DNA from: a virus
IMG/VR virus record: IMGVR_UViG_3300005467_000022
Location: 1 to 40,843 of that record
DNA: 40,843 nucleotides
Direction: 5' to 3' (one strand)
Below the pieces are notes generated by a model. It was given only the letters and a program-made list of their open reading frames with translations, was not told where the DNA came from and ran no database searches. Numbering within the stretch: position 1 is the stretch's first letter; each line of letters opens with the position of its first letter. The translations under genes and the position numbers were made by a program. Of this stretch, positions 11,452-40,843 are shown piece after piece.

Positions 11452-11465
11452 GGTAGGGGAGAGGA

Positions 11466-13325: not shown

Positions 13326-13349
13326 ACGAGCTGTTCACCAGGGACGAGT

Positions 13350-13508: not shown

Positions 13509-13510
13509 GT

Positions 13511-13726
13511 CTATTCCCCCTGATTCCGCGCGATGGCCGCGTTCGCCCAGAACACGACCTCTTCCAGCTTGGTCAGGGCCAGGGACTGCTCCCGGCTCTG
13601 GGGCACTTCCTCGTCGATGAACTGGGCCAGCCCCAGGGCCCCGCCCCGGACCGTGTCCATGATCTCCAGCCACTCCTGACTCACGGAGTGCGAGATGAAC
13701 CTGTTGTGGATCTCCTGTTGTGCCAT
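13511..13726 (-). CDS. Small helical protein; possible N4 gp49 / Sf6 gp66 (Acb2-like) family member (71 aa)
   Basis: The sequence is MAQQEIHNRFISHSVSQEWL...VPQSREQSLALTKLEEVVFWANAAIARNQGE. The SRExSLAxTKLEE..WANAAI motif matches that family from memory only. Confidence 0.4.
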   Translation of the reverse strand: MAQQEIHNRFISHSVSQEWLEIMDTVRGGALGLAQFIDEEVPQSREQSLALTKLEEVVFWANAAIARNQGE

Positions 13727-13727
13727 G

Positions 13728-14837: not shown

Positions 14838-15007
14838 TACGGCCACCTCCGATGGCACTTGCAACGGCACGGTGCCGCGCAGAACTTGCACTGCGCCGGG
14901 ATCTTGTCCCCGGCCGCTCCCTTGTCGCCCGCGCAGTATCCGTGGTCGCCATGCAGACACGCGGTCGACAGATACCGATGGCGCCGTACGAACCGGACCC
15001 ATGTCAC
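14837..15007 (-). CDS. Small Cys/His-rich protein (56 aa)
   Basis: The GTG start overlaps the MuF TGA (GTGA). The sequence is VTWVRFVRRHRYLSTACLHGDHGYCAGDKGAAGDKIPAQCKFCAAPCRCKCHRRWP, with high third-position G+C. Confidence 0.5.
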   Translation of the reverse strand: MTWVRFVRRHRYLSTACLHGDHGYCAGDKGAAGDKIPAQCKFCAAPCRCKCHRRWP

Positions 15008-15780
15008 GGGTTCTGCCTCCGGCTCCAGTCGAGCCGCTCCCCATCGACCAGGTATGCGCAACCGCAACGACAATTAATCACAGACGCCGCAGGGCCCCGG
15101 GGATCGCCGGGGAACTGGAGCCGGGCCCCGCCCACGACGAACGGCTCGGCGATCAGTGTGCTCTGTCCGTCGGCGGCCCGGTGCGCGGGGCGCGTCCTTT
15201 CGTCCCGAGTGCTGATCCACACCTTGCGGGGAGCGAGGTCGCCCCGTTCACGCGCCGCCTCCAGCGCGCCGAAGTAGGCGCCCGCCTGGACCGCGCCCTG
15301 GACCTCGGTGCGCGCCACGACGACGGCCCGGTTGGGCCAGTACTCCGAACCGCTCGCGGTCAGCACGGTCCGCACCCTGGCACTGATCTCGGGGATGCCC
15401 TCGCTGCGCGCGAGGCCGGTCTCGATCTCGCGCACCACGAGCGAGTAGACCTCGTCCGGCACGCGCCGCAGCCGGTTGCCCGCCTCGTTCAGGTACGCCG
15501 CCGCTTCCCGGTCGGTCACCGCCTCGTCCTCGGGCGCGCCGGTGAGACGGTTGCGCACGCGGACCAGGAGGCCTGAGGCGACCGACACCACCTCGGAGTC
15601 CATGAGCTGGCCCCAGTAGACCGTGTGACCGCCGAGCGCCTGCGGTGCCGGTGGTCCGTCGGCGGGCAGCACCTGGGGGCGCACGCGGTCCATCCACCGG
15701 GTCAGCGACCGGAACCACGCCCTCCGCATGCGGTCCTCTCCCTGGGTGACGAGGGGATCGTCCTCAGGCGGCGTCGACAC
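15004..15780 (-). CDS. MuF / SPP1 gp7-like head morphogenesis protein (258 aa; alternative ATG at 15729 with a GGGAGAGGA RBS)
   Basis: The motifs DERTRPAHRAADGQ and VINCRCG are typical of the family, and the gene lies immediately after the portal. Confidence 0.75.
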   Translation of the reverse strand: MSTPPEDDPLVTQGEDRMRRAWFRSLTRWMDRVRPQVLPADGPPAPQALGGHTVYWGQLMDSEVVSVASGLLVRVRNRLTGAPEDEAVTDREAAAYLNEAGNRLRRVPDEVYSLVVREIETGLARSEGIPEISARVRTVLTASGSEYWPNRAVVVARTEVQGAVQAGAYFGALEAARERGDLAPRKVWISTRDERTRPAHRAADGQSTLIAEPFVVGGARLQFPGDPRGPAASVINCRCGCAYLVDGERLDWSRRQNP

Positions 15781-17554: not shown

Positions 17555-17847
17555 TAGTCACCAGCTTCCCGGGATGCCAGTGCTCCCGTCACGTGCGATG
17601 CGGCCAGCGCGAGAACGGTGGCCTGGTACCACATCGTCGCACCCCACATGTACCAGAGCGCCCCGCCCGCCAGACCCACGTACACGCTCATGCACCACGG
17701 GCAGAGCAGGAGGTAGGCGGACATGGACTCGTCCCGGCCCCGCAGCAGCTTCCGTACAGCCCAGTTACGGGGGCGCTCGGTGACGTAGTCCGAGGTGATC
17801 AGCCGGGTCACACGGGCGACCGCGAGAACGGTGAGAACGAAGATCAT
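17554..17847 (-). CDS. DUF1360-like membrane protein (97 aa)
   Basis: It has hydrophobic segments and the motifs ARVTRLITSDYVTERPR and LLCPWCMSVYVG. The ATGA junction overlaps the TerL stop. Confidence 0.55.
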   Translation of the reverse strand: MIFVLTVLAVARVTRLITSDYVTERPRNWAVRKLLRGRDESMSAYLLLCPWCMSVYVGLAGGALWYMWGATMWYQATVLALAASHVTGALASREAGD

Positions 17848-20174
17848 GCGCTGCGCCTCCTCAGGCGGTCGAAGGGATGGCCCCCGATGGCCCGGCCGAG
17901 CCCGGCCGCATGGGGGGACACGACGGTGCCGCGCCCCTTCTCCCGGCGCAGGAGGTGGGTCACCGCGTGGACGAGGGCGTCGACGCGGTCCGGTGACTCG
18001 TTCGGCGTCTCGTGCGGGTCCCAGGACGTTAGCTGAAGCTCAAGCCCGTCGAGCCTGCCGACGTGGAAAATCTTGCCCTGTTCGTACCGCATGGCCACGG
18101 GCTGCGCCCGCAGCACCTTGCCGTGCTGCGCCGTGACCTTGCGCAGCATGCGGTAGGGGGTCGGTACCACCGCCACCGGTTCTTCATCCTCCTCTCTCTG
18201 CATGTTGTGCTGAAGGGCTTCCCACTCCGACCGTTTCGCGTCCTCTTCCGTACGCAGCCGGAGACGCTGCTCCGCATCGAGTTCGTGATGGTCGGCGTAG
18301 GCATCGATCAAGCCGTCGCGCAGCCACTGCTTGCCGAAGTTGTCCTCGTAGACGAGCAGCGAGGCGCCGTGGTCGTACAGCGCCTTCCAGGCTGTGAGGC
18401 CGGTCTCGCGTGCCGACATCTGCCTGGACAGGTCGGCGAGTACGTACACATGCTGGTCCTCGGCGCCACGCCCCACGACCACGATTCCGGCCTCGTCACC
18501 GGTCCCGGTGCCGGCCGGGTCCACGCCCACCACCACGAGGTCCAGCTCGGGCGCCGCGTCGACGTGGTGGATGTGCTTGCGCTGGACCAGCGCGCCGGGC
18601 AGGTCTTCCAGGATCTCGGCGTCCAGCTCCTGGCGCCCCAGCGTGGTGCCCGCGTACCGGTCCAGGACCGAGCGCCTGAACACGGGCGCGAGGTTGTGAA
18701 GGTTGTCGTAAGTCGAGCCCCGCACCACGGCGAACCGCTCATCCTTGACCGCCTCGCGGACCAGGGGCAACGGCCGGGGCGTGGTGGTGATGCAGCCCCG
18801 CGGGTGCTCACCCAGGCGCAGGCCCATGAGGGCCATGTCCCAGGTCTGCTGGAGGTAGCGCCACGCCGCCCACTCGTCGCAGTTGTGCACGACGACGCCC
18901 CCGGCCACGAACTCGCCGTGGCCGGGGACGCCGATGTCATAGACGTCAGCCCTGCGGAGGAGCCGCGAGACGCTGACGACGCGCTCGGGCCGCGCACCGC
19001 TGAGTGCAGTACTTGGCCCGCTGTCCTGTGGAGAGGTAAGTCCCCCCACAGTGAGCACAGACGACCGGGCGTGCCTCACGGGACTGCCAGGACTGCTTGG
19101 AGACAGCCGACCGGTCGATGTGGGCGTACAGCCCCCGGGCGTGGTTGTCCTTGCAGTGGTAACTGTTGTGCTCTGCGTGGGAGAGCATCCGCAGGTTGCC
19201 GAGCTGGTTGTTGGCCTTGTCGTGGTCGGCATGGTGGATGACGTACCCGGCCGGGATCTCTCCGTGGGCCGCGATCCACACGTGCCGGTGCAGCAGCCAG
19301 CCCCCGCTGTCCCGGTAGTGCCCTGCCTGTTGCCGGTAGTACCGTCGCTCGCGCCACTCGATCCACGCGGGGGGTGTGCCGGGGCCGTCTGTGAGTTCCA
19401 TACCTGGATGGTATCGCCACACTCGATGAAGCGTGCTTCAACCCAACCTGTGTCGGTGGATGCGATGCGGTGTTCGGGGGTGCATACGACACGCGCCCCC
19501 GACTCCGTGACGATCTCCATCAACTCTGCGTCACGCTTCGTCCGGAACGACCCGGAACAACGGCCCCACCCTGTGCGGGTCGCCAGTAGATCCTGGTCCG
19601 TGACGTCCTCGATCGGCACCCATCCCCGGGCAGTGAGGATCGGCTCCCCCTCTGCGATGCACCACAGGTAGTGGTGCTGGGGTCCGCGCAGGCGCTCCGG
19701 CTCCTCGGCCGAGTAGCAGTACAGCGCCGACCCGTTGGGGAACTCGACCTTGCGCTTGGACGGGTGATAGACCGGCCGGAACGAGGGGCGGGCACAGGCC
19801 AGGATGCCTGACTCGCCCTCGATCATGGTGTCGCGCACGTCGGCGGCGGTGGGCCCGATGAGCGCCCCGCGCTCCAGGGTCTTCGCCTGGCGGATGACCC
19901 ACTCGGCGCCGGTCCGGGTCTTGCCGAAGCCACGCCCCGCGAGCAGGAGCCAGAAGTCCCAGTCGTCCCCGGCCGGCGCCCGCTGGACCGACCGCGCATG
20001 CTCGTTGCGACGCCCCTTGTGCGGGCGGCCGTCACAGTCCTCGCGGTCACAGAGCCACGGGCCGCGCCCGGTCTCGCGCTCCTGGGCCAGGGACTGGAGT
20101 CCGGCCAGCAGCTCCTGTTTCTTGTCGACGGGCCAGTGCTCCCAGCCCCGGGGGAGGGCCGGGGCGGCGGTCAT
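17844..20174 (-). CDS. terL: Terminase large subunit interrupted by a 260-codon intein
   Basis: Walker A is LLLAGRGFGKTRTG. The single 776-codon ORF has a Walker B-type LWCDE that is split as ...HHYLW / CIAEGE...VVVHN / CDEWAAW. Confidence 0.9.
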   Translation of the reverse strand: MTAAPALPRGWEHWPVDKKQELLAGLQSLAQERETGRGPWLCDREDCDGRPHKGRRNEHARSVQRAPAGDDWDFWLLLAGRGFGKTRTGAEWVIRQAKTLERGALIGPTAADVRDTMIEGESGILACARPSFRPVYHPSKRKVEFPNGSALYCYSAEEPERLRGPQHHYLWCIAEGEPILTARGWVPIEDVTDQDLLATRTGWGRCSGSFRTKRDAELMEIVTESGARVVCTPEHRIASTDTGWVEARFIECGDTIQVWNSQTAPAHPPRGSSGASDGTTGNRQGTTGTAGAGCCTGTCGSRPTERSRPGTSSTMPTTTRPTTSSATCGCSPTQSTTVTTARTTTPGGCTPTSTGRLSPSSPGSPVRHARSSVLTVGGLTSPQDSGPSTALSGARPERVVSVSRLLRRADVYDIGVPGHGEFVAGGVVVHNCDEWAAWRYLQQTWDMALMGLRLGEHPRGCITTTPRPLPLVREAVKDERFAVVRGSTYDNLHNLAPVFRRSVLDRYAGTTLGRQELDAEILEDLPGALVQRKHIHHVDAAPELDLVVVGVDPAGTGTGDEAGIVVVGRGAEDQHVYVLADLSRQMSARETGLTAWKALYDHGASLLVYEDNFGKQWLRDGLIDAYADHHELDAEQRLRLRTEEDAKRSEWEALQHNMQREEDEEPVAVVPTPYRMLRKVTAQHGKVLRAQPVAMRYEQGKIFHVGRLDGLELQLTSWDPHETPNESPDRVDALVHAVTHLLRREKGRGTVVSPHAAGLGRAIGGHPFDRLRRRSA
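18882..19661 (-). mobile_element. Class-1-type intein in TerL (Cys1 ... His-Asn / Cys+1)
   Basis: Block A is CIAEGEPILT, block B is VVCTPEHRI (TxxH), and blocks F/G are ADVYDIGVPGHGEFVAGGVVVHN followed by Cys. Removing the element gives a contiguous ...GPQHHYLWCDEWAAWRY. Confidence 0.8.
18946..19422 (-). CDS. HNH endonuclease ORF nested in the intein linker, in the -1 frame relative to TerL (GTG 19422 or ATG 19401)
   Basis: The HNH core is LLHRHVWIAAHGEIPAGYVIHHADHDKANNQLGNLRMLSHAEHNSYH, with a zinc-ribbon-like CAHCGG...YCTQRC. This frame has high third-position G+C, whereas the TerL frame over the same interval is T/S/G/P/C low complexity. Confidence 0.75.
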   Translation of the reverse strand: MWRYHPGMELTDGPGTPPAWIEWRERRYYRQQAGHYRDSGGWLLHRHVWIAAHGEIPAGYVIHHADHDKANNQLGNLRMLSHAEHNSYHCKDNHARGLYAHIDRSAVSKQSWQSREARPVVCAHCGGTYLSTGQRAKYCTQRCAARARRQRLAAPPQG

Positions 20175-22957: not shown

Positions 22958-24694
22958 TCAGGTGTAGAGCCCGGACCAGGTCCGGGAGGTACGGATCTCG
23001 CCGCGTCCCGCCGTGAAGCGCACCGGCAGCGAGGCGCCGGCCGGGGCCCACTCCCGGGACATGCAGTCGCGGACGATGCGGCCGATCTCCTGGGCGTCCT
23101 CCTCCTTCGCCTGTAGGACCACTTCATCGTGGACAATCACGCGCAAAAGGGGCAGGATGTCCGGCGCCTTGTGGGCCAGGGTGATGAGGCACTCGGCGAT
23201 GACGTCCCGGGTGGTGGACTGGCCGATCATGGCGGGTGCCTGGGTGTACGACCGCTGGGGGTCGACCCGCAGGCGGCGCCCCCACCCGTTGGTGAGGAGC
23301 ACCCCGGCGTCGCCCATCTCGCGCACCCGCTTCTGCCACGCGACCACACCGGGGAAGGCGGAGGCCATGTAGCCGGTGACCGCGTACGCGGCCTGCGGAG
23401 TGACGCCAGGGGTGTTCTCAGCCATGCCCTTGGCGGTGCGGCCGTACAGCCAGCCCAGGTCCAGCGTCTTGGCGTACTTGCGCTCGACCCGGGACATGGC
23501 CGCGATCTCGGTGTGGATGTCCCTGTCGGGATCGTTCAGCAGCGCGATGAGGCCTGGGTCCTGCGCGTGGGCGGCGGCGCACCGGATGTCGACCTGGTCG
23601 GCGTCGATGCTCAGCAGGACGTGGCCCTCGTCCGCCACGAGGAAGGCGCGCTCCGAGTCGGAGGTCCCCTTCTTCAGGACCGTGAGGCCCGGCTCCAGGA
23701 CCGACCACCGGCCCGTCGACTGGAACGGCAGGAACTGGGGGTGCACCCGGCCGTCGGGCGAGACGCAGCGCAGCACGTTGGCCGCGTTGTTCCTGATGCC
23801 GTTCATCTCCTGGACCGCTTCGATCACGGGCAGACAGGCGTGACCGGCGGCGCGCGCCCAGTCGGCGGCGGTCTCCAGGACCTCCTTCGCGAGGGAGAGG
23901 GAGCCGTCCTTGTTGCGGGGCCAGGAGCTGACGTCGACGCCGAACGAGGTGAGGGCGGACTCCAGGGCCACCTTGCCCGCGTTCGTGCGCTGAGGAGCCG
24001 CGTAGGGCTTCCCCTTGCCGTCGGTGAGGGGGAATCCGAAGCGTTCGTGCAGCAGCGTGCGGCCGTCCTCGGCGCGCCGGGCCAGTTCGGCGGCGCGGGC
24101 GGTGAGGCCGGGCACGTCCACCTTGAAGCCGCTCAGGGTGGCGCGGGCGGTCACCGTGGCCACCCACGCCTCGCGCTGCTCGTACGGGTCCCAGGGGATC
24201 GCCGCGTCCAGGCGGCGCGTCAGGTCCAGGTCGGCGCGCAGGTAGTCGGTGTAGCGGGGATCGCCCGCGGGGATGCGGTCCCAGCCGCCGTACTCCTTCG
24301 CCAGTTCCTTGCCCAGGTCGGACTTGCGGGCGTCACCGAGGTAGCGCTCCGCCAGGGCGTCCATGGAGTAGCTCTTGAACCCGGGGCCGGACGAGGTCTC
24401 GTACGTGGTGGGCGGGTCGTGCTGGAAGGCAGCGACGCGCAGGTCCCGGCTGAAGGGGATCGTCGTCTCCACCGGGATGCCGCAGTGCCGGTCCAGGGCG
24501 GGGAAATCGAAGAAGTGCCCGTTGACCGTGACGTGGGGCTGGCGGCTGAAGAAGTACTGCTCCCCGGGCCCGCGCACCTCGTCGTCCACACCCAGGAGAC
24601 GGACGTACGCGGGGTCGGGGGCCGACGTGTACAGGCGGTCGGCGCTGCCCGTTTCGATATCGAGTGGGATGAAGGCGGGGCGGTCGTCGGTCAT
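22958..24694 (-). CDS. Family A DNA polymerase (Pol I-like, 578 aa) with an N-terminal exonuclease-like region
   Basis: Motif A-like is LLSIDADQVDIR, motif B is RKYAKTLDLGWLYG and motif C is VIVHDEVV. The N-terminal PLDIETGS is Exo I-like. ATG 24694 has a GAGGAG RBS, and the track ORF start is a shadow extension. Confidence 0.9.
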   Translation of the reverse strand: MTDDRPAFIPLDIETGSADRLYTSAPDPAYVRLLGVDDEVRGPGEQYFFSRQPHVTVNGHFFDFPALDRHCGIPVETTIPFSRDLRVAAFQHDPPTTYETSSGPGFKSYSMDALAERYLGDARKSDLGKELAKEYGGWDRIPAGDPRYTDYLRADLDLTRRLDAAIPWDPYEQREAWVATVTARATLSGFKVDVPGLTARAAELARRAEDGRTLLHERFGFPLTDGKGKPYAAPQRTNAGKVALESALTSFGVDVSSWPRNKDGSLSLAKEVLETAADWARAAGHACLPVIEAVQEMNGIRNNAANVLRCVSPDGRVHPQFLPFQSTGRWSVLEPGLTVLKKGTSDSERAFLVADEGHVLLSIDADQVDIRCAAAHAQDPGLIALLNDPDRDIHTEIAAMSRVERKYAKTLDLGWLYGRTAKGMAENTPGVTPQAAYAVTGYMASAFPGVVAWQKRVREMGDAGVLLTNGWGRRLRVDPQRSYTQAPAMIGQSTTRDVIAECLITLAHKAPDILPLLRVIVHDEVVLQAKEEDAQEIGRIVRDCMSREWAPAGASLPVRFTAGRGEIRTSRTWSGLYT

Positions 24695-24702
24695 GGAGCT
24701 CC

Positions 24703-24897
24703 TCAGTCGAACGGGTTGGCCCGGAACGGGGTGCCGTCGGGCTTGGTGTTGGACCGCAGCCACTGGGCGGCGGCCAGCTCCAGGGCGGCGGTCCGGGTCA
24801 ACCGCAATGCCTTGGCCGCCTGGATGAAGTCCCACCACAGGCCCTCGGAGTCCTTTGTCACGTTTGCCACCACATTGGGCAGTTTGTTGGTTGCCAT
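24703..24897 (-). CDS. Hypothetical small protein (64 aa), first gene of the polymerase operon
   Basis: The start is MATNKLPNVV at 24897. The helical LRLTRTAALELAAAQWL could be DNA-binding, but this is unproven. Confidence 0.45.
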   Translation of the reverse strand: MATNKLPNVVANVTKDSEGLWWDFIQAAKALRLTRTAALELAAAQWLRSNTKPDGTPFRANPFD

Positions 24898-24944
24898 GGC
24901 CACCACAGTAGACAGTCTTGTAAGAAGTTGCAACTTCTTACAAG
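24898..24944 (-). promoter_or_regulatory. Perfect 28-bp palindrome (24917..24944) abutting a degenerate motif copy just upstream of ATG 24897
   Basis: The palindrome is CTTGTAAGAAGTTG/CAACTTCTTACAAG. On the minus strand AAGACTGTCTACTGTGG lies next to it. G+C is locally low. Confidence 0.5.
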
Positions 24945-24975
24945 GAAATCTAGATGATCATGGTCCTGACCAGGG

Positions 24976-25064
24976 CCTTACGCCTCTTACGCGTAGTCTG
25001 GGTTCCCTCACGTGAGGGAATCTCTCAGAGGGCGGAGCCGGAGGTTCGCGTAAGAGGCGTAAGG
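24976..25064. repeat. Nested inverted repeats: an 18-bp outer IR enclosing a perfect 18-bp palindrome
   Basis: CCTTACGCCTCTTACGCG (24976-24993) pairs with CGCGTAAGAGGCGTAAGG (25047-25064). The inner palindrome is TTCCCTCACGTGAGGGAA (25003-25020). The block lies just after the primase/helicase stop. Confidence 0.7.
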
Positions 25065-25080
25065 TGATCTTGTAACTGGG

Positions 25081-27252
25081 TCAGAACGGGCTGTTCCCGG
25101 GCACAGGGATGGTTGTCATCCCAGAAGGTGCGATACGGACACCCCACCAGACCCGCTTGGCGGCCCCGTCCACCCACTTGACCTTGTACTCGATGCGGTG
25201 TGCCTGGACCCGGTCGTGGGCCCCGAACCGGGAGTCGAACGTCCGCTTCGACCACGGCTTGTGGCCGGTCGGCACCAGCCACTGGCCGAAGGTGTTGAAC
25301 AGGTCCATGGGGGCGGTCATCGCCTCCGGGTCGACCTCCAGACGTTCCTCCAGGAAGGACATGATCAGGTCCCCCTCGCGGCGCCACGCGAGCGTGTCTG
25401 CCACGATCCGATCTGGGTGAGGCGGCAGCACCTTCCCCGCCTCGTACCACCTCACGGCCCCCGCCACGGCCCACGCCAGGGCCGCCCGTGCCGGGCCCTG
25501 GTCGAGCTTGCAGCGGTCGCGCAGCGCGGGGTCCCCCAGCCGGTCCGTCTCCGACACCACGTCCCCGGGCCGGGACCGGAAGGTGTACGGGAACCTGAGC
25601 ATGGCCAGGCGCCGCCACGTGGCGTGGTCCGTCTCCGCCACAGCCGGGGCGAAGTTCGTGTTCACGAACAGCGAGTGGGTGGCGTCGAAGGTCACCGGGT
25701 CCTGGCGGATGCGCCGGGCCGTGATCTGCGGCGTGCCCACGGTCTTCTTCAGTTGCTGCACGTTGAGCTGGCGCGCCTCCGGCGTCTCTTCCATGAGCGC
25801 CAGACGGGCCCCCCGCAGGTCCATCATCTCGGTGGGGTGCTGGTCCACGTTCCCGAGGATCACCCGGTCGGAGAGCTGGACCTGGTAGTCGCCCGCCGCC
25901 CGTGCGATCGGGACCGCCAGCGTGGACTTGCCGTTCTCGCCGCCGCCCTGTTGCACCAGCATCACGTCGTCGGGCGTCATGTACCCCGTGAACGCCTGCC
26001 CGATCCGGAGCTGGTACCACGGCACCACGTCATCGGGCAGTGCCCGCAGTGCCTGCCGGAAATCCGGATCGTCCGCCGCCGACGGGTCGTACTCGGCGCC
26101 GGTCACCTTGGTCATGCGGTACTCGGGATCGGGGTCGAGCAGCTCCCCGGTGCGCAGGTCGACCACGCCGTTCGGCGTGTTCAGCAGATCCGGGTGACGG
26201 TCGAACTCGGACGCCAGCGCATGAAGAGGTCCTTTGGCCAAGGACGCCAGTGCGCGGATGCGGCCCGCCGTGAGGACCTGCTTCCACCCGTTGATGCGGG
26301 CCTCCACCTCCCGGCTGTGGTCGTGCTTGTACTCCTCCAGCACGTCCTCCCAGTGGCCCTTGGCCCACAGGCGGACCTCTTCGACGATGAGGGAGTCGTC
26401 CGTCTGTACCCACCGACACCCGTCGTAGCGCATCCAGCCCAGCCCCTGGGCGTACAGGAACCGGCCTTCCAGCGCCTCGGAACACACGGCGTCGGTGAGG
26501 AACGCCTCGGTGAGAGTGGCGTCCTTGGAGCCGGTGTCGCGCGGCGCCGACTCGGACGCCGCCGCGTACAGTGCCGGGAGCGTGCCGCCCGCCGCGAAGT
26601 AGTCGTCCACCCCCTTGACCGGAACGCCACCGACCTCGGCGGGGACGACCAGGTAGTGGGCGGTTGCGCCACGGGACCTGAGCCAGTCGACCAGCCGCCT
26701 CATGGCGGCCCTTACCTTCGGATTGGTGACCGCGTCCGAGTCGAAGCACACGGCCACTGGCCGCCCACGCAGGGGAACGTCCTCCCAGTCCCCGAGCGTC
26801 CCCTCCTGGTTGCGCCAGTTCCACACACCGGTGAGGGACACCGCCGCCAGGCCGAGCGAGGCCAGGGCGTCCGCCTTCTTCTCCCCCTCCGTGATCCAGA
26901 GCGGGAGAGCGGCGTCGTTCACCCACCCCGTGCACGCGGGGTGGACGCCCACCCGCAGGTTCATGCCCTTCGGGCTGACGTACTTGGGGGTCTTCCCCGT
27001 GCTGGGGTGCGGCTGCGGGACCGCCGGCTTGAACTGGATGCCGATGTACTCGCCGGTCCTCACGCGGTACCGGGGAATCGCCAGGCCCGGGAATGCCGAG
27101 TCGTCGCGGACCGCCCACGCGGGGATGCCCGCGTCCTGCAGCCAACCACGGTGCTCGGGACCGACGGTGGCGTACCGGCGCGACTCGATCAGCTCGGGGC
27201 TGATGCACGATCCGGCGAGTTCAGCCTCGTGCTGAGGCTGGAGGCGGCTCAA
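25081..27252 (-). CDS. Bifunctional DNA primase/helicase (Toprim-like N-terminus plus D5/P4-type SF3 helicase, 723 aa)
   Basis: Toprim-like motifs are ITEGEKKADAL and AVCFDSDA. Walker A is QQGGGENGKST and Walker B-like is ARLALMEE. The TTG start overlaps the upstream TGA (TTGA). Confidence 0.85.
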   Translation of the reverse strand: MSRLQPQHEAELAGSCISPELIESRRYATVGPEHRGWLQDAGIPAWAVRDDSAFPGLAIPRYRVRTGEYIGIQFKPAVPQPHPSTGKTPKYVSPKGMNLRVGVHPACTGWVNDAALPLWITEGEKKADALASLGLAAVSLTGVWNWRNQEGTLGDWEDVPLRGRPVAVCFDSDAVTNPKVRAAMRRLVDWLRSRGATAHYLVVPAEVGGVPVKGVDDYFAAGGTLPALYAAASESAPRDTGSKDATLTEAFLTDAVCSEALEGRFLYAQGLGWMRYDGCRWVQTDDSLIVEEVRLWAKGHWEDVLEEYKHDHSREVEARINGWKQVLTAGRIRALASLAKGPLHALASEFDRHPDLLNTPNGVVDLRTGELLDPDPEYRMTKVTGAEYDPSAADDPDFRQALRALPDDVVPWYQLRIGQAFTGYMTPDDVMLVQQGGGENGKSTLAVPIARAAGDYQVQLSDRVILGNVDQHPTEMMDLRGARLALMEETPEARQLNVQQLKKTVGTPQITARRIRQDPVTFDATHSLFVNTNFAPAVAETDHATWRRLAMLRFPYTFRSRPGDVVSETDRLGDPALRDRCKLDQGPARAALAWAVAGAVRWYEAGKVLPPHPDRIVADTLAWRREGDLIMSFLEERLEVDPEAMTAPMDLFNTFGQWLVPTGHKPWSKRTFDSRFGAHDRVQAHRIEYKVKWVDGAAKRVWWGVRIAPSGMTTIPVPGNSPF

Positions 27253-27635
27253 CGGTCACCAGCCGTGCGCTCGGCCTTGATGCGCTCGGTGATCTCACGG
27301 AGTTTCTCGTGGCCGTGCCAGAGGAAGTTGTACCCACAGGTGTACCCGTCGCCTCCGATGCACACCACCCACTCGCCGGGCTGGGGCTCCGTTCCTTCGG
27401 GGTGGTGGTTTCCCCAGACGAAGGGGTGCCCGCCCTGAGGGCACCGGGCGTTGCCGGAATCCCCGGTGGCCCCGTCGACGATCACCGCAGTCTCAGCCAG
27501 AACGAGGGCACGCCGCAGTCCGGCTCCGGCTCCCCGCTCCCGGTGGAGTTCGGCCAGTGCTTCGGCAAGGACCCATTCGTCTTCGTCCAGGCGGACGCTG
27601 CGCGATTCCCTGGGAAGGTTGTTGCTGGAGTTCAT
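27249..27635 (-). CDS. Putative ribbon-helix-helix DNA-binding protein, first gene of the leftward arm (128 aa)
   Basis: The N-terminal SRSVRLDEDEWVLAEALAELHRERG has a beta-strand-plus-helix RHH pattern and the C-terminal half is Cys/His-rich. ATG 27635 lies 2 nt from the inverted repeat. Confidence 0.45.
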   Translation of the reverse strand: MNSSNNLPRESRSVRLDEDEWVLAEALAELHRERGAGAGLRRALVLAETAVIVDGATGDSGNARCPQGGHPFVWGNHHPEGTEPQPGEWVVCIGGDGYTCGYNFLWHGHEKLREITERIKAERTAGDR

Positions 27636-27636
27636 G

Positions 27637-27680
27637 AGGCGAACGTAGCACACACGAAATAAAATGTGCTACGTTCGCCT
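27637..27680. promoter_or_regulatory. 15-bp perfect inverted repeat with an AT-rich spacer in the divergent control region
   Basis: AGGCGAACGTAGCAC pairs with GTGCTACGTTCGCCT across the spacer acacgaaataaaat. It lies between the divergently transcribed genes that start at 27635 and 27711. Confidence 0.6.
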
Positions 27681-27710
27681 CACACCAACGACGACACGGA
27701 GGACCACATC

Positions 27711-28745
27711 ATGACCGATGAGAACCGTTGCCCCGTCACCGCCCCCGAGGGGGACGCCCGGTGCACGCTCCCGACCGGCCACCGTCTGCCGCACCGGGGT
27801 GAGGGTTGTATGTGGCTGGACGAAGGGTCCCGGTGCCCGGCTCAGCGCACCCCGGAAGGGGACCAGTGTGTCCGCCCTGTCCGCCACCCCCTGCCGCACC
27901 GGGACGCCTGGTGGAGGAAGTGGGCGCTCCCCTTCGACGGGGAGGACGAGCCCCGCCGGTGCGCCATGTTCCCCCACGCCGCCGATCAGGGCCAGTGCAT
28001 CTTCGACGCGGGCCACGAGCACCCGCACCGGGACGAGAGGGACACCGAGTGGCAGGTGACCGGCGATGGGACCACCTGCCGACGGGACGGCTGTACGTAC
28101 CGCTCGGGCCACGAGGGCCTTCACGGCAGCGGGCCCGGTGACTACATCGGCGGCCGTCTGGTCGAAGAGGTTCTCCCCGAGGCGTTCCAGCGCATCTCTG
28201 TGCTGGAGAGGCGCCCGCAGAACACGTCCCCCCACGCCGCCCTTGCTGAGGCATTGGAGCGTGCCCAGCGTCCCCTGTCCTGCGGCGCCACGCACACTCC
28301 CGAGGATGTGACGTACGTCTGCTCGCGCCGGTCCGGCCACACGGGCGGTCACCTGGACGACGCACAGGACGAGTGGTGGATGCCGGTCGGGGGTGCGCAG
28401 CCGGGGGCCGAGAAGCCGGTAGCCGGGCTGGACGTGTGCGGCAGTCGTGCGGGCGGGGACCTCGCGACTCTGTGCACCGAGCGGAACGGCCACGACATGC
28501 CGCACAAGGACAAGCTGACCGGTCTGACATGGGGTCCGGAGCCGACGGCCGAGTGCGGGCTCCGCACTCGGCCGTCGTGGTCTGCGACCCGGCTCCGGTG
28601 CTCCCGGGTCGCAGACCACGACGGGCACCACACGGACAGGCGGTTCGGCACGTCGTGGACCGAGGACGTGGATCTGCCGAGTCTGTGCACGTGGCCGTGC
28701 GTCTTCCGCGAGGGCCACAAGGGTGAGTGCAGTCAGCCGGTCTGA
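27711..28745 (+). CDS. Protein made of 8 tandem C-Xn-C-X5-H-X3-(H/C) zinc-finger-like units (344 aa)
   Basis: A GGAGGA RBS precedes the start. The unit cores include CTLPTGHRLPH, CVRPVRHPLPH, CIFDAGHEHPH, CTYRSGHEGLH, CSRRSGHTGGH, CTERNGHDMPH, CSRVADHDGHH and CVFREGHKGEC. Confidence 0.7.
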   Translation: MTDENRCPVTAPEGDARCTLPTGHRLPHRGEGCMWLDEGSRCPAQRTPEGDQCVRPVRHPLPHRDAWWRKWALPFDGEDEPRRCAMFPHAADQGQCIFDAGHEHPHRDERDTEWQVTGDGTTCRRDGCTYRSGHEGLHGSGPGDYIGGRLVEEVLPEAFQRISVLERRPQNTSPHAALAEALERAQRPLSCGATHTPEDVTYVCSRRSGHTGGHLDDAQDEWWMPVGGAQPGAEKPVAGLDVCGSRAGGDLATLCTERNGHDMPHKDKLTGLTWGPEPTAECGLRTRPSWSATRLRCSRVADHDGHHTDRRFGTSWTEDVDLPSLCTWPCVFREGHKGECSQPV

Positions 28746-28752
28746 CCCTGGA

Positions 28753-28799
28753 CACACCGCAGCCCCAGCGCCGAAGGATGACGCTGGGGCTGCGGTGTG
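28753..28799. terminator. 18-bp perfect-stem bidirectional hairpin between convergent genes
   Basis: CACACCGCAGCCCCAGCG pairs with CGCTGGGGCTGCGGTGTG across an 11-nt loop. Confidence 0.7.
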
Positions 28800-28827
28800 C
28801 TCGGACCTGCCGTCGGGCCACACGCTA

Positions 28828-29109
28828 TCAGCGCACCGCCGCCTCGCGGTCCTTGCTCCCCCGCCGGTTCCAGTGGGCCCACTTGGTCCGGGCCGCCTGC
28901 TCCATTTCGCTGGTGTCGAAGACGACCCCGAGCTGCGGATGCAGGTACCGCTTCACCTTGCCGGACGCCGCCCACCGGGTCAGCGTGCGCACCGTGGTCC
29001 CGGCCAGCCCGGCGGCTGTCTCGCGGTCGACCACGGACATGCCACGCGGCGGAGGGTCCAGGGGTGCCGTCACGCGGCCGTCCCCGGCCCGTGTCGCTCG
29101 TCGTGTCAT
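28828..29109 (-). CDS. Helix-turn-helix DNA-binding protein, MerR/excisionase-like (93 aa; alternative ATG at 29040)
   Basis: The sequence MSVVDRETAAGLAGTTVRTLTRWAASGKVK is a typical HTH. It is the only minus-strand gene inside the rightward arm. Confidence 0.5.
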   Translation of the reverse strand: MTRRATRAGDGRVTAPLDPPPRGMSVVDRETAAGLAGTTVRTLTRWAASGKVKRYLHPQLGVVFDTSEMEQAARTKWAHWNRRGSKDREAAVR

Positions 29110-29137
29110 GGGATCACGGTACCCCGGAGGTCAGGTG

Positions 29138-29170
29138 TGTGGACAGCTTGAGATTGTGAAGTTGTCCATA
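29138..29170. promoter_or_regulatory. Divergent pair of motif copies
   Basis: tgTGGACAGCTTg (reverse copy, 29138-29150) and GAAGTTGTCCATA (29158-29170) form an inverted pair between the genes starting at 29109 (minus) and 29183 (plus). Confidence 0.55.
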
Positions 29171-29182
29171 TACGCTGTCCCC

Positions 29183-29743
29183 ATGAAGCGATTTCTCTAC
29201 CCCACCCCGGCACAGACCGAGATCCCGCTGGTGTGGTCCGCATACGGGGCCGACGCGCTCGACCACCACTACGAAGGGCGGCGGGCCGAGACCCGGGTCC
29301 ACCTCCACGAACTGGTCCGCCGCCTCGGGCTCGGCCCCGGCTACACGGCGATGTCCCGGCACGTGGCGCGCCGCAGGCTCGCGGTCCTGGACCCGGAGCT
29401 GCTGAAGGCCCTGGTCACCGTGCTGCGGTACCACGGGTACATCCACCGCGACCCGGGCACGGACCACTGGCGCGCCACCCCGCTCACCGGGGTCCAGCTC
29501 CATGCCGTGCGGCTGTACGCCTCGGGCCTGGACCAGGGCCAGATCGCCGCCACGCTGCGCGTCAACCGGTCCTCGGTGTCGGCCCGCATGATCCGCATCA
29601 TGCGGGCCACCGACAGCCGCACGGTGCCCCAGGCGCTCATCCGCGTGTACGACCTGGGGTGGCTCCCGGACCGGGACGAGCGCGATCTCCTGGCGCGCCG
29701 CAAGGTGGGCGGCTTCCCGTACCTGATCCAGGAAGAGGACTGA
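29183..29743 (+). CDS. LuxR/GerE-type HTH transcriptional regulator (186 aa)
   Basis: The C-terminal LTGVQLHAVRLYASGLDQGQIAATLRVNRSSVSARMIRIMRA fits the GerE-type HTH. The ATG lies 12 nt after the motif. Confidence 0.6.
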   Translation: MKRFLYPTPAQTEIPLVWSAYGADALDHHYEGRRAETRVHLHELVRRLGLGPGYTAMSRHVARRRLAVLDPELLKALVTVLRYHGYIHRDPGTDHWRATPLTGVQLHAVRLYASGLDQGQIAATLRVNRSSVSARMIRIMRATDSRTVPQALIRVYDLGWLPDRDERDLLARRKVGGFPYLIQEED

Positions 29744-35014: not shown

Positions 35015-35439
35015 GCAGCTTCCGTGTCGAGATCACCTACCTCGACGGGGTCCAGGAAGCCGTCTCGGACATCCCCACCGAGAGGATGGCGGCAGACATC
35101 TACAGCAGCGCGGCGACCCACGACCGGGTCCTCAGCGCGGTGCTGTACGGGGCCGACGGGTGCGTGGTCTCACAGATGGTCACGGCGGTGAACAGGACCG
35201 CCCCGCACCAGCAGACCTGGACGGGCTTCGGCTCGCAGGAGGCCGCAGCGCTGGCGCTCAACCCCCTGCCACGCCAGTGGTCGGTCACCGAGGGGTGCAC
35301 GTCCACCTGGTACCCGGACGGGGCCACCGGCATCTTCCGCCGGTGCGCGCTCCTGCGGGGCCACCGTGGGCCGCACCGCAAGGGCGACATCGTGTGGGAC
35401 GACGCCGACGAGGTTGACGGCCGCCGGCCCGCAGGCTAG
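35011..35439 (+). CDS. Hypothetical protein with one C-terminal CCHH module (142 aa)
   Basis: An ATGA overlap start is used. The module is GCTSTWYPDGATGIFRRCALLRGHRGPH. Confidence 0.55.
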   Translation: MSSFRVEITYLDGVQEAVSDIPTERMAADIYSSAATHDRVLSAVLYGADGCVVSQMVTAVNRTAPHQQTWTGFGSQEAAALALNPLPRQWSVTEGCTSTWYPDGATGIFRRCALLRGHRGPHRKGDIVWDDADEVDGRRPAG

Positions 35440-37662: not shown

Positions 37663-38229
37663 CTACGGTCCCCAGATGCGGAATGCCGCCATGAACTTGA
37701 GCGTGGCGAACATGGTCTCGTCACTCGGGCCGGCCGGGTTGAGCCGGGCCGAGAAGCTGTCGGTGGTGCCGTTCATGAAGCCGACCCCTGACACGTGCAT
37801 CACGTGCAGCGCCGGGGACTGGGCGAAGTAGCTGGGTGAGTTCCACGAGATCGACTCTGTGACGTTGCGGAGCAACTGCAACTGGCGCGAGGTGGTGAAG
37901 GTCGAGTTCGACGGGGTCACGGCGGCCCAGCAGTACCACCAGCCACTGAGCTTGGGCACGATCCGGGTCGGCTGCGAGCTGAGGTTGGCGGCGCCGTGCG
38001 TATCGATGTCGACGAAGTCGAAGGACAGCTCCGTGTTGGTACGCGGCGGGAACGTCTGCTTGACGGTGCGGGAGCTGACCTTCACCATCGGGCGCTGGTT
38101 GATGGACGAGGCCAGCGCCTGCATGTCCAGGTCGACCGCGTCGGCGAACGCCTCGATCGCCTCAGGGACCCTGCCCGGGTCGCCTGCCACGGGGTACGGG
38201 TAGCCCCGGTTCGGGGTCAGGGCGGGCAT
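37663..38229 (-). CDS. Minor tail / putative receptor-binding protein, RGYPYP family paralogue 1 (188 aa)
   Basis: The N-terminal NRGYPYPVAGDPGRVPEAIEAFADAVDLDMQAL is followed by a beta-rich C-terminus. Confidence 0.55.
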   Translation of the reverse strand: MPALTPNRGYPYPVAGDPGRVPEAIEAFADAVDLDMQALASSINQRPMVKVSSRTVKQTFPPRTNTELSFDFVDIDTHGAANLSSQPTRIVPKLSGWWYCWAAVTPSNSTFTTSRQLQLLRNVTESISWNSPSYFAQSPALHVMHVSGVGFMNGTTDSFSARLNPAGPSDETMFATLKFMAAFRIWGP

Positions 38230-38808
38230 CTACATCACCGACTGTCGGGTCACGGAGAGGTGGCGGGAGCTGGACTGGTACGTGGCGGCTCCGGTCTGGC
38301 GCATCACCATCTGGATGTTGCTGCCCTGGAGCAGCAGAACCACCATCGCGGCCGTCAGCCCGTCGGTGTTGACCGTGGATGCCGCAAAGCTGAAGGACCG
38401 GGCGATCAGACCGAGGCCTCCGGTGCCGTTGTTCATCAGCCACATGCCGATGGAACCGTTGTTGGGGTTCCCCGGAGAAGCCAGGGTCATGGTCCCGGTG
38501 ACCAGGTAGATCCCGGTCTGAGTGATGTTGATCGTCGTATTCGACGTGCCGAGGTTCGCCATGTTGTCCGTGTCCACGACCTCGGTCGTGTACGTCGCGA
38601 TGACATCGGTGCTCGGCGCCACCGCCTGGTTGGTGGCGAAGGGTGCGCGCAGGTAACAGGTCGGCTGGTGCTTGCCCGCGTTGACCCGGTCGTACAGGGT
38701 CTGCATGTCCGTGTCGACTGCGGTCGCCAGCGACTGGATGTTCCCGGCCGGGTTCATCGGGTCGGTGTACTCGGGGTATGGGTAACCGCGAGGGGTAGTC
38801 AGCGTCAT
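38230..38808 (-). CDS. Minor tail / putative receptor-binding protein, RGYPYP family paralogue 2 (192 aa)
   Basis: The N-terminus is TPRGYPYPEYTDPMNPAGNIQSLATAVDTDMQTL. Confidence 0.55.
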   Translation of the reverse strand: MTLTTPRGYPYPEYTDPMNPAGNIQSLATAVDTDMQTLYDRVNAGKHQPTCYLRAPFATNQAVAPSTDVIATYTTEVVDTDNMANLGTSNTTINITQTGIYLVTGTMTLASPGNPNNGSIGMWLMNNGTGGLGLIARSFSFAASTVNTDGLTAAMVVLLLQGSNIQMVMRQTGAATYQSSSRHLSVTRQSVM

Positions 38809-39548
38809 GCACGCCTCGCAGTCGCCCAGTCCCAGCGCGCGCCAGTGAAGGCGTTGAGCGCGGTCCGCAGGCCCACGCGCAGGGTCGTCGAGTTGGCGGG
38901 CACGGTGACGTTCCCGCTGAGGAGCTGCATACGGTCCCCCTCGGGGATGTTGGTGACGTTCTGGACCGTGGTATCAGGGTCGGACGTGGTCGGGTACAGG
39001 GCGGAGCTGGAGCTGAACCAGAGCGCGCGCAGGGCGCACGCAGCGGTGTTCGGCGTGGCGCTGCCGTAGTCGCCGTTGGCGTAGGCGCTGAGCGTCCAGA
39101 CCTGTCCCGGCAGCACCGCGATGGGGTCGCTGTACACGAACGTCACCGAGGCGCCCGAGCCACCGTCGACTGCCAGCGCCGTATCCCCCTCCACCGCCTT
39201 GGCGTACGGGATGACCTTGACGTCGCTCACGCCCGACTGCCGGTAGACGGTCCAGTTCAGCGGGACCGACGTGTTGTCGTCCGCCAGCGCGAAGGAGGGG
39301 TTCGCCACCTCGTTGCCACCCGTGGTGGAGGTGGTGCCGATGATGAACCAGCTCGCGTTCTGCCGGGTCAGCACGACCACGTCGCCGATCCTCGGCGCTG
39401 ACTGACGGGTGTAGGCAGCGCGGAACTCCGTGCCGCCGACGTCGACGGTCGCGAGGAAGGGATCGACCAGGACCACGGTCCCGGGCCTGGTGTGGGCGTA
39501 CTGCCCGATCATCCCGCTGAGCTGCTGTGTGACCCCGAGGACGCCCAT
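38805..39548 (-). CDS. Minor tail protein with a carbohydrate-binding-like domain (247 aa)
   Basis: The sequence NEVANPSFALADDNTSVPLNWTVY resembles the start of a CBM/jelly-roll domain. An ATGA overlap links it to the next gene. Confidence 0.5.
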   Translation of the reverse strand: MGVLGVTQQLSGMIGQYAHTRPGTVVLVDPFLATVDVGGTEFRAAYTRQSAPRIGDVVVLTRQNASWFIIGTTSTTGGNEVANPSFALADDNTSVPLNWTVYRQSGVSDVKVIPYAKAVEGDTALAVDGGSGASVTFVYSDPIAVLPGQVWTLSAYANGDYGSATPNTAACALRALWFSSSSALYPTTSDPDTTVQNVTNIPEGDRMQLLSGNVTVPANSTTLRVGLRTALNAFTGARWDWATARRA

Positions 39549-40159
39549 CAGACGTCCAGCTTGCGGAGCTGGAGCATGCCCATGCGCACACCGAGGTTGA
39601 CCGTGCCCGAGTTGCCTGTCGGCCCGAAGGTCATCTGGGTCTGGACTAGGTCACCGGCGTTGCAGGGGATGATCTCCAGCGCGTTGTACGCCAGCTCGGT
39701 GCCGAGGTACTCACCCGCCCCCTCGTAGTGCCGCCCCTCGGACGTGGCCACGCCCGCACGCAGGAAGCGGATGCCGAGCTGGGTGAAGACACCGGGGTTG
39801 CCCAGGATGCGCACCATCGCGGTGAAGACGTACCAGCCCCGCTCCACCGTGACGAAGCCGTTGCGGGGAATGTCGGTGAGCGAGCCGGTGCCGGAGTTGT
39901 CGAACGCGACCGTGTCGTACGGCACGACGAACTGGGTGTGGGTCGCGGTGAGGAGGGGGAACGGGAAGTTGGTCGCGCTCCCGGTCATGCCCGCAGCGTC
40001 GGGCTTCTCCCAGAACTGCACGATCGAGTCGCTGCGCGCCTGCGCGTCGGCGTCGATCGCCAGCGCGAGGTCGCGTAGCTGGGCGATGTCGCTGGCGTCC
40101 TTCACCAGGGGCGGGTCGCACTCGGGCACGGGGTAACCGCGCCATTCGGTTCTCTTCAT
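39548..40159 (-). CDS. Minor tail protein, RGYPYP family paralogue 3 (203 aa)
   Basis: ATG 40159 has a GGGAGAGA RBS. The N-terminus is WRGYPVPECDPPLVKDASDIAQLRDLALAIDADAQ. The longer track ORF start is a shadow extension. Confidence 0.55.
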   Translation of the reverse strand: MKRTEWRGYPVPECDPPLVKDASDIAQLRDLALAIDADAQARSDSIVQFWEKPDAAGMTGSATNFPFPLLTATHTQFVVPYDTVAFDNSGTGSLTDIPRNGFVTVERGWYVFTAMVRILGNPGVFTQLGIRFLRAGVATSEGRHYEGAGEYLGTELAYNALEIIPCNAGDLVQTQMTFGPTGNSGTVNLGVRMGMLQLRKLDV

Positions 40160-40184
40160 GGTCTCTCCCGTCGTCCCGCTCAGC

Positions 40185-40843
40185 CTAGGGGGTGGGTGCG
40201 GACTCGATCCGGCTGCGGCCCGACAGGGACATGGCCTCACCCGTGTTCAGCGGGTAGGTGACGGAGTCGATGATCTGGGTGTCCCTCAGGCCCCGCCACG
40301 ACACGTCCAGTGTGTCACCAGGCTCGATGCGGTAATCGGGGACGCAGTCCATCTCCCACTGGCGCACGAGTGCCCCGTGGGCCGCGAGCTGGGACCGCGC
40401 CGCCCGCTGCGCCTCGTTGGGGGTGGTGGCGGTCTGGAGCCTCAGCTTGAGCACCCGTTTGCCGAAGTCGCCGCCGTAGACGTACGGGTCCACCGCGTTG
40501 AGGTTGCGCTCCACCGCGCGGATGGGGGTGTCCCCGTCGAGCCGGTCTGCCAGCACGACGACGCTGTTGTACACCCCGTCGGCGGTGACCTCGATGTCCG
40601 CCGAGGTGAGGGTGCCGGTGGGGCCGTCGGTCAGGGAGCCGAGGACGGTGATGCCGTCGTAGCCGAGCCTGCGCACCACGAAGCTGCCGTTGCCCAGGGT
40701 GTACCAGCGCGCCTCCAGGACGGAGGCCATGTCGTCGAGCGCCTTTCCCCGGTCGTCGTCCCACACCAGGCGCGGGACCGACGCGTCGTCCACGTCGTCG
40801 GGACCGAACACCGCGTGCGGGTACGCGTCCGAGATCATGCGCC
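40185..40843 (-). CDS. C-terminal part of the junction-spanning minor tail (hub-like) gene; see 1..496
   Basis: ORF 40185..40838 is in phase with 61..496 through the terminal overlap. The internal Met at 40838 is not the real start. Confidence 0.7.
   Translation of the reverse strand, partial: RMISDAYPHAVFGPDDVDDASVPRLVWDDDRGKALDDMASVLEARWYTLGNGSFVVRRLGYDGITVLGSLTDGPTGTLTSADIEVTADGVYNSVVVLADRLDGDTPIRAVERNLNAVDPYVYGGDFGKRVLKLRLQTATTPNEAQRAARSQLAAHGALVRQWEMDCVPDYRIEPGDTLDVSWRGLRDTQIIDSVTYPLNTGEAMSLSGRSRIESAPTP
40784..40843. repeat. Second copy of the 60-bp terminal overlap
   Basis: It is identical to nt 1..60. Confidence 0.9.

Follow-up and report, generated by a model that had tools for sequence, protein, structure and literature searches.

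The window analysed here is a 40,843 bp stretch of viral DNA (IMG/VR record IMGVR_UViG_3300005467_000022) that represents a complete phage genome, and the subject of this report is an open reading frame on its plus strand, at 27711-28745, which encodes a 344 amino acid (aa) protein (P0001) built from repeats of a small unit rich in Cys and His. The gene starts with an ATG, preceded at a distance of 6 nt by what reads as a Shine-Dalgarno sequence, GGAGGA. Its GC content by codon position (0.70/0.56/0.86) is typical of the true genes of this genome, the GC content of the window being 70% throughout. The N-termini of all homologues follow the pattern MT(D/Y/L)(D/E)N(R/H)C, which supports this ATG as the correct start.

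P0001 contains 18 Cys, 20 His and 11 Trp residues, and exactly eight C-X5-H-X3-(H/C) cores, compared to a mean of 0.10 and a maximum of three in 20,000 composition-preserving shuffles of the same protein. The initial annotation, made from the sequence of the stretch, had described the product as almost entirely composed of eight tandem units; the number eight holds, but the units account for only about two thirds of the protein, and a segment of ~50 residues in its middle (about residues 139-190) is not made of units. A second Cys lies 10, 10, 11, 4, 12, 11, 14 and 3 residues upstream of cores 1-8, respectively, as that annotation had proposed in giving a range of 3-14 residues, and the three units that it quoted are present verbatim. 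Six of the sites are full units of ~35 aa that close with a Trp positioned 3-8 residues past the last His. The other two, units 4 and 8, are shortened, with C-X4-C and C-X3-C spacing, respectively; neither has the Trp, and the final ligand of unit 8 is a Cys. The acidic stretch that was reported to precede the closing Trp of several units is less general than the Trp itself: the latter closes six units, but a clear acidic run is found only in units 3 and 5.

Close relatives of P0001 are few, with four found among 5.8 billion proteins, in addition to two alleles encoded by contigs L005 and L006. The Cys and His residues of the shared units are all conserved in these relatives. When 1.84 billion representative proteins were searched with a profile, just ten more came up, all of them distant and each carrying 1-8 copies of the unit. 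The alignment of 47 units from 15 proteins, belonging to phages of 45-70% GC, contains only five invariant columns, namely C, C, H, H and W. In 36 of these 47 units a Gly stands before the first His (forming a GH pair), while Asp is the commonest residue two positions past the last His (26/47), and the loop between the two Cys residues measures 7-19 residues. The unit was defined as C-X7-15-C-X5-H-X3-H-X5-8-W, with C, C, H, H and W invariant, together with a match to an independent profile. Such a profile, based on 31 units from the ten distant proteins, finds 8/8 sites in P0001, six of them clear and two weak. Poor conservation of the Cys and His positions among homologues, which the initial annotation had named as an outcome that would speak against its proposal, was not what was found, as the ligands are kept in every homologue as well as being invariant in the unit alignment.

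An AlphaFold2 model of unit 5, computed with the 47-unit alignment, reached a predicted local distance difference test (pLDDT) score of 90.8 and consists of two small β-hairpins, with no helix predicted at H22-H26. Foldseek comparison of this model with BFVD returned many predicted structures of uncharacterised proteins of Gordonia, Microbacterium and Mycobacterium phages, with template modelling (TM) scores of 0.75-0.86 and a root mean square deviation of ~1 Å. Some of the matched proteins are just 43-44 aa long, showing that the unit can stand alone. The unit is an autonomous, phage-borne and unnamed module. Against the PDB, no Foldseek match was obtained below an E-value of 3.3; a confident match to a known non-zinc repeat fold was another finding that the annotation had listed as counting against it.

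The remark that the unit could not be recognised as a named domain was borne out by all of the sequence databases consulted. No family was reported by hmmscan of P0001 against Pfam-A at E-values up to 10, and Pfam and NCBIfam searches with P0001 and the ten distant relatives revealed neither a zinc-finger family nor any other significant one, yielding only weak coiled-coil-type or chance-level matches (among them Zn_Ribbon_1 in P0011, E 0.39, at chance level). The unit profile had no match among PDB sequences at E-values up to 10, and the whole of P0001 had a single chance-level one (E 0.65). The PHROGs matched (21374, 33110, 13875, 20343 and 25654) are all described as 'unknown function'. P0001 aligns with phrog_21374 (E 3.8e-8) only over profile positions 283-330 of 340, corresponding to the unit part, whereas gp64 of Gordonia phage Paries aligns over positions 1-340 (E 3e-176); since the match of P0001 is confined to positions 283-330, the two proteins share the unit and not the architecture of the family. 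A word-indexed protein search with the unit alignment examined 20 candidates and gave no match. From phage genomes, tblastn retrieved a single marginal match with a query of diverse units joined end to end, and megablast retrieved nothing with the locus. No eight-unit array was seen in the phage database entries covered (BFVD, and the GenBank phage collection by tblastn). Furthermore, no relative of the repeat gene was detected in 185,579 species-representative genomes, so that neither a prophage copy nor a clue as to the host is available from this source. Literature searches returned no description of a Cys2His2-Trp unit. The unit is unnamed in any database and has no solved structure, and the array of P0001 is a probably metal-stabilised array of such mini-domains. 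The positions of the units and of the flanking elements are compiled in Table 1.

Table 1. Repeat gene of the window, its units and the flanking features, in order of position.
Feature	Position	Strand	Details
Divergent control region, perfect 18-nt inverted repeat	27635..27682	.	Arms 27635-27652 / 27665-27682
Shine-Dalgarno sequence GGAGGA	27699..27704	+	Read from sequence
Coding sequence of the 344-aa Cys2His2-Trp repeat protein P0001	27711..28745	+	Open reading frame, codon GC, homologues
Unit 1	27729..27815	+	Residues 7-35; C7, C18, H24, H28, W35; independent profile E 4.8e-11
Unit 2	27834..27914	+	Residues 42-68; C42, C53, H59, H63, W67/W68
Unit 3	27960..28052	+	Residues 84-114; C84, C96, H102, H106, W114
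Unit 4, short variant	28077..28124	+	Residues 123-138; C123, C128, H134, H138, without Trp; weak, 4.6 bits
Central non-unit linker	28149..28274	+	Residues 147-188; probably helical
Unit 5, 'anchor'	28281..28379	+	Residues 191-223; C191, C204, H210, H214, W222/W223; core GHTGGHLDD
Unit 6	28437..28532	+	Residues 243-274; C243, C255, H261, H265, W274
Unit 7	28554..28658	+	Residues 282-316; C282, C297, H303, H307, W316
Unit 8, short CCHC variant	28686..28730	+	Residues 326-340; C326, C330, H336, C340; weak, 1.2 bits
Hairpin, 18-bp perfect stem, between convergent genes	28753..28799	.	-45.5 kcal/mol, z -6.5
Second unit-bearing gene of the same phage, 142 aa	35011..35439	+	C-terminal unit CTSTWYPDGATGIFRRCALLRGHRGPHRKGDIVW, about 35296-35403

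The units are not equally conserved. Unit 5 (CGATHTPEDVTYVCSRRSGHTGGHLDDAQDEWW), here termed the anchor, is the most conserved of them, being near-invariant in P0002-P0005 and still recognisable in P0006, P0009 and P0011. Unit 8 is also conserved in P0002, P0004 and the L006 allele, where it is likewise C-terminal, and a segment that follows unit 4, GxGDYxGGRxxEEVL, is shared with P0009 and P0011. A helix is placed at residues 174-185 of the linker by the low-confidence full-length model; in L005, P0002 and P0003 another segment takes the place of this linker, and in P0010, P0011 and P0013 its counterpart is long and coiled-coil-like.

The DNA that encodes the C-C loop of unit 7 consists of two perfect palindromes. 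These lie next to each other at 28543-28624, with a 16-bp stem and 3-nt loop and a 21-bp stem and 11-nt loop, respectively, and the corresponding RNA has a minimum free energy of -73.7 kcal/mol (z -7.4). In L005 the corresponding stretch has 6 nt fewer and its palindrome is imperfect. The difference resembles the 'perfection' of a quasi-palindrome via template switching, by which the unit-7 loop would have changed from HRTTLGGYRF to LRTRPSWSATRL, although the palindromes may alternatively represent a regulatory RNA structure.

The unit also occurs outside the array. The same phage encodes a 142-aa protein with a single C-terminal unit (profile E 1.5e-5) and no family match, for which tblastn gave no match, and this gene is also present in the sister phage L001 (16830-17258). 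In L001, a 148-aa gene on the plus strand (9558-10004) lies directly upstream of the repeat gene and overlaps its start by 4 bp. Its product carries one N-terminal unit followed by an HNH-like motif, CRLC...HIGH...DDNLALMCEEC, which has a weak NCBIfam match to the HNH region of IscB (E 0.0022) and neither a Pfam match (E up to 0.1) nor a PDB sequence match; a word-indexed search with this unit plus HNH-like protein retrieved only itself. In phage Paries (Vividuovirus), gp64 possesses two C-terminal units (E 5.7e-7 and 2.4e-9) after an unrelated N-terminal region of ~320 aa, and gp65 begins with one unit. Both are annotated as 'hypothetical protein' and are located in the RecT / replication-initiator / RuvC arm. 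The genes of other distant members, in phages of 45-70% GC, adjoin those for PolA and β-clamp, methylase, or primase and ligase. One of these phage contigs, L012 (46% GC), encodes an eight-unit protein (P0008); at 2581-8004 it also carries adenylosuccinate-synthetase-like and PTPS/QueD-like genes beside β-clamp and PolA, and may employ a modified-base DNA chemistry (PurZ-type or deazaguanine).

The repeat gene occupies a conserved genomic slot of which the content is hypervariable. The order primase (minus), small gene (minus), repeat gene (plus), helix-turn-helix (HTH) gene (minus) and ~200-aa gene (plus) is shared by the window, L005, L015 (encoding P0009) and L016 (encoding P0006), and is found with variations in L001 and L008. 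In five related phages the gene has putative outward-facing extended -10-like promoters before it and a strong hairpin behind it. The positional orthologues in the slot carry 2-8 units, and the alleles are mosaics of a common unit pool. In the L006 allele, for example, units 1-3 resemble those of the window, the linker that of L005 and the tail units those of P0004, while P0004 includes a hybrid of units 2 and 3. Relative to L005, the N-terminal units have a ratio of nonsynonymous to synonymous substitution rates (Ka/Ks) of 0.99 and the C-terminal units one of 0.67, compared to 0.25, 0.23 and 0 for the primase, HTH and 128-aa genes, respectively, these values being derived from one pairwise comparison with few substitutions and possibly inflated by recombination.

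Between the window and L001, identity is 97-99.9% outside 24694-28695; this stretch, which spans the primase and the repeat gene, is replaced in L001 (6336-10694). Within this swapped module, the only DNA patches that are kept are the cores of unit 3 (27995-28064, 95.7% identity) and unit 5 (28281-28391, 90% identity). The exchange is a sharp, mosaic swap of a cassette. Its edge is marked by an 18-nt direct repeat (GCCACCACATTGGGCAGT / GCCACCACAGTAGACAGT) with a spacing of 33 bp, located at 24866-24916 in the interval that separates PolA from the primase. The reshuffling of the array between near-identical phages suggests a fast-evolving binding protein and not a classical DNA-reading zinc finger.

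Proceeding rightward from a divergent region of 76 bp, the first gene is the repeat gene, with the leftward gene on the other side of this region. The inverted repeat reported in this region at 27637-27680 is present, although its perfect 18-nt arms define slightly wider limits (Table 1). Each arm holds an outward-facing TGCTACGTT, which resembles an extended -10 element (plus strand, 27667-27675; minus strand, 27650-27642). An outward-facing TGyTAnnnT pair is also present in the equivalent region of L005, L001, L015 and L016, with variable spacing of the arms, and the motif does not occur elsewhere in the window. In the window and these four relatives, the leftward copy always ends at a distance of 6-7 nt from the first codon of the leftward gene, implying a leaderless leftward mRNA. 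To judge from these motifs, the pair would constitute two back-to-back extended -10 promoters, leaderless on the left, and if so, early transcription dependent on the host polymerase is plausible, as is, by extension, early expression of the repeat gene.

The first leftward gene (27252-27635, minus strand) codes for a product of 128 aa that is ribbon-helix-helix-like at its N-terminus (RSVRLDEDEWVLAEALAELH) and rich in Cys, His and Trp at its C-terminus. No family matches this protein, which is 100% identical in L005 while its neighbours differ by 8-30%.

Downstream of the repeat gene, the initial annotation had placed a terminator with an 18-bp stem. The stem is confirmed, with arms at 28753-28770 and 28782-28799, and it is kept in L001, but it lacks a U-tract and, for that reason, receives no score in a canonical terminator scan. 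It is probably a factor-independent bidirectional terminator. The next gene, an HTH gene at 28828-29109, lies on the minus strand, and the repeat gene of the window phage is consequently monocistronic, located between the divergent region and the strong hairpin, just as had been described. That it should be the first gene rightward of the control region is true of the window but not of L001, where the gene for the unit plus HNH-like protein precedes it.

With regard to the rest of the genome, the window encodes a large terminase, an amidase and a possible small terminase, besides PolA, a D5-type primase-helicase, a helicase and an exonuclease. The large terminase (17844-20174, minus strand, 776 aa) contains an interrupting intein (Intein_splicing, E 8e-11), as does that of L001. 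Ten large proteins, presumed structural or uncharacterised, are encoded at 496-15044 and 37663-40240 and have no Pfam match. The best match of PolA among GenBank phages, to that of Actinoplanes phage phiAsp2, is at 34% identity. The lineage of this phage is actinophage-like, uncultured and poorly sampled, and comes from metagenomes of soil or rhizosphere. Tandem Repeats Finder gave no result, and a search of 24600-29300 for iteron-like direct repeats that could serve as DNA targets returned only the DNA echo of the protein repeat.

The presence of four invariant Cys2His2 ligands, a Trp and a Gly in an otherwise variable module of 35 residues argues for one structural Zn(II) per unit. We consider it likely that the product of the gene is an early phage protein in which six full and two abbreviated autonomous modules of ~35 residues are combined, and that in each of them C-X7-15-C-X5-H-X3-H most likely holds one Zn(II), both the binding and the identity of the metal being read from the ligand pattern. 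The invariant Trp and the near-invariant Gly of the GH pair would complete a tiny core of two β-hairpins, leaving the other positions, and above all the C-C loop, free to vary. As for expression timing, type of partner and biological role, we infer that P0001 is a multivalent binding protein that is stabilised by zinc, made early and subject to diversifying selection. The isoelectric point (pI) is 4.6-6.8 in all 15 family members (5.8 for P0001), the mean net charge of a unit is about -1, and there is no conserved basic position. This acidity, the lack of candidate DNA target repeats at 24600-29300 and the fact that the array changes on a near-constant genome together favour a multivalent protein-binding role, for example in host takeover or anti-defence. 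The target would, on these grounds, be slightly more likely to be a protein than a nucleic acid, and binding of P0001 to nucleic acids appears somewhat disfavoured.

The following mechanism is put forward tentatively, and taken as a whole (an early multivalent binding or adaptor protein with a host-protein target and a diversifying array) we would rate it as rather less than probable. Host RNA polymerase would transcribe the repeat gene at the onset of infection from the extended -10 promoter, and the one-gene transcript would end at the strong hairpin. P0001 would then act as a multivalent binding or adaptor protein, in which the anchor unit 5 and the central helical segment may engage a partner that stays constant or allow the protein to self-associate. 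Changeable loops would be offered by the variable units to a changing target, most likely a host protein (one that serves in defence or is targeted for takeover, for instance) and not a fixed DNA sequence, and the array would diversify by gain, loss and recombination of units. It is conceivable, though more speculative still, that the unit represents an unrecognised phage-specific metal-binding fold used as a shuffleable recognition cassette, with arrays being made first in infection and engaged in an arms race with host factors, and with single units serving as targeting tags on nucleases and other early proteins. The phage arrays would in that case be a viral, protein-targeting counterpart of the fast-evolving polydactyl zinc-finger families.

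Several points weigh against such a protein-binding role. The full-length AlphaFold2 model, from a five-sequence alignment, has a pLDDT of 30 and is unusable; promoter and timing are read from the motifs described above, and a generic sigma-70 promoter scan found nothing; and the Ka/Ks values call for the caution already attached to them. Tandem arrays, the fusion to an HNH-like domain and the replication/recombination neighbourhood would, moreover, fit a nucleic-acid role equally well. P0001 could in that case be an accessory of the replication/recombination module, the Zn units of which contact single-stranded DNA, double-stranded DNA or RNA, perhaps with the Trp stacking on bases in the way known from retroviral nucleocapsid knuckles, and which assists a nuclease, or the D5-type primase-helicase (itself without a zinc-binding domain), in recognising templates or origins. 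Tandem metal fingers usually bind nucleic acids, and the gene adjoins the primase in the window, L005, L015, L016 and L008, is near PolA and β-clamp, methylase, ligase, or RecT and RuvC in more distant phages, and was swapped together with the primase between the sister phages. Yet the proteins and their units are acidic and without a conserved basic position, the number and sequence of units vary freely on a backbone of ~98% identical DNA, and a search of 24600-29300 found no iteron-like array. A place in the hydrophobic core of a 35-aa domain is the simpler explanation for the invariant Trp, and the fusion of one unit to an HNH-like nuclease depends on a weak assignment (E 0.002 to the IscB HNH region, with no Pfam or PDB match). 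We view this accessory role as a serious alternative but on the unlikely side.

The remaining explanations are less probable by far. The pattern C-X7-15-C ... H-X3-H, and GHTGGH in unit 5, resemble the CX8CXnHX3H of Aim32 and would, as sequence, suit Zn or an Fe-S cluster alike, so that the sites might bind a bis-histidinyl [2Fe-2S] cluster or another redox-active metal, as in Apd1/Aim32, and the array might be a redox or metal-handling protein. This is improbable, given that the Apd1/Aim32 ligands reside in a thioredoxin-like ferredoxin fold of ~100 aa with a long Cys-His spacer, compared to a spacer of five residues in a phage unit of 35 aa, that no Pfam match to ferredoxin-like families was found, and that we know of no precedent for eight clusters in a fast-evolving early phage protein. 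Nor is it at all likely that the Cys/His pattern is unrelated to metal and that P0001 is a scaffold or structural protein of β-hairpin repeats held by packing or disulfides. Foldseek against the PDB did list β-hairpin repeat proteins, such as the Cp-1 lysin with its choline-binding repeats, though at E-values no better than about 10. Exactly the four ligand residues are invariant across units from phages of 45-70% GC while the rest varies, disulfides are unlikely in a cytoplasmic protein, and the gene is situated in the early/replication arm, away from the structural genes, with no significant PDB match for its product. The least likely of all is a classical polydactyl C2H2-type transcription regulator that reads DNA finger by finger. 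The Cys2His2 ligands, tandem array and position beside the control region would suit it, but it is largely refuted by a ligand spacing of C-X3-14-C-X5-H-X3-H vs C-X2-4-C-X12-H-X3-5-H, the absence of any zf-C2H2, Ros/MucR or other zinc-finger Pfam match at E-values up to 10, a model without a helix bearing the His pair, the lack of conserved linkers, the acidity of the protein, and the reshuffling of the array with no matching change elsewhere in the genome.

If the reading favoured here is correct, a name, a fold and a probable cofactor can be assigned to a module that is unannotated in dozens of sequenced actinophages and in five PHROGs. Multi-unit metal-finger arrays are very uncommon in phages, and a gene that is hypervariable, probably among the first to be expressed and cassette-swapped between near-identical genomes is a candidate for host takeover or anti-defence, where novel mechanisms are much looked for. 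A 35-residue autonomous scaffold that tolerates change outside five positions could serve as a minimal engineered binding module. The existence of cultivable relatives, with gp64 and gp65 of Gordonia phage Paries, makes the question experimentally tractable.

A number of known systems invite comparison with the phage unit. The closest to P0001 are the proteins of actinophages in PHROGs and BFVD, which carry the same ~35-aa unit, are encoded in the early/replication arm and are called 'hypothetical protein'; they differ from P0001 in that they possess one or two units on unrelated domains, or a stand-alone unit. The sites of Apd1 and Aim32 also have two Cys residues ~8-12 apart together with H-X3-H, the cluster ligands of Aim32 following CX8CXnHX3H (PMC8482512), and an HxGGH-like core is found in unit 5 (GHTGGH). 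Those proteins, however, have one site each, the ligands being separated by a long spacer and embedded in a thioredoxin-like ferredoxin domain, and no similarity of sequence or fold to them was detected; membership of this type was rejected on the size of the unit, its short Cys-His spacer and the absence of a ferredoxin-like Pfam match. The two-hairpin topology of the unit model is ribbon-like, but a zinc ribbon, which has CxxC-type knuckles where its two β-hairpins turn, was dismissed because CxxC pairs are absent, the ligands being single Cys, Cys, His and His residues, and because there is no PDB match (best E 3.3). A tail-fibre-type His-metal repeat was rejected since the gene lies in the early/replication arm.

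Retroviral nucleocapsid knuckles (C-X2-C-X4-H-X4-C) are ~14 aa long and strongly basic, and their aromatic residue stacks on RNA bases. They resemble the phage units as very small tandem metal knuckles with a conserved aromatic residue each. The phage unit, on the other hand, has 35 aa, is acidic or neutral and places its Trp several residues past the last ligand. A CCHC knuckle was ruled out by the lack of a zf-CCHC match, and only unit 8 is CCHC, with the spacing C-X3-C-X5-H-X3-C. Ros/MucR, the best-known bacterial Cys2His2 zinc domain, is a single DNA-binding domain of ~58 aa per protein, with the spacing C-X2-C-X9-H-X3-4-H; arrays do not occur in that family, the phage spacing differs and there is no ROS_MUCR Pfam match, so this identity was likewise discarded. 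Finally, the zf-C2H2 arrays (PF00096) share Cys2His2 ligation with H-X3-H and tandem, metal-stabilised units of ~30 aa. Classical fingers adopt a ββα fold with both His residues on the α-helix, and it is in this classical sense that the zinc-finger-like unit described in the initial annotation fails, in spacing, profile and model alike: the phage unit has C-X3-14-C-X5-H, two β-hairpins, no TGEKP-like linker, an acidic and not a basic character, no zf-C2H2 profile match and no helix with the His pair. In their mode of evolution, however, the two are alike, as KRAB-ZNF and PRDM9 arrays evolve by gain, loss and recombination of units in the manner proposed for the phage array.

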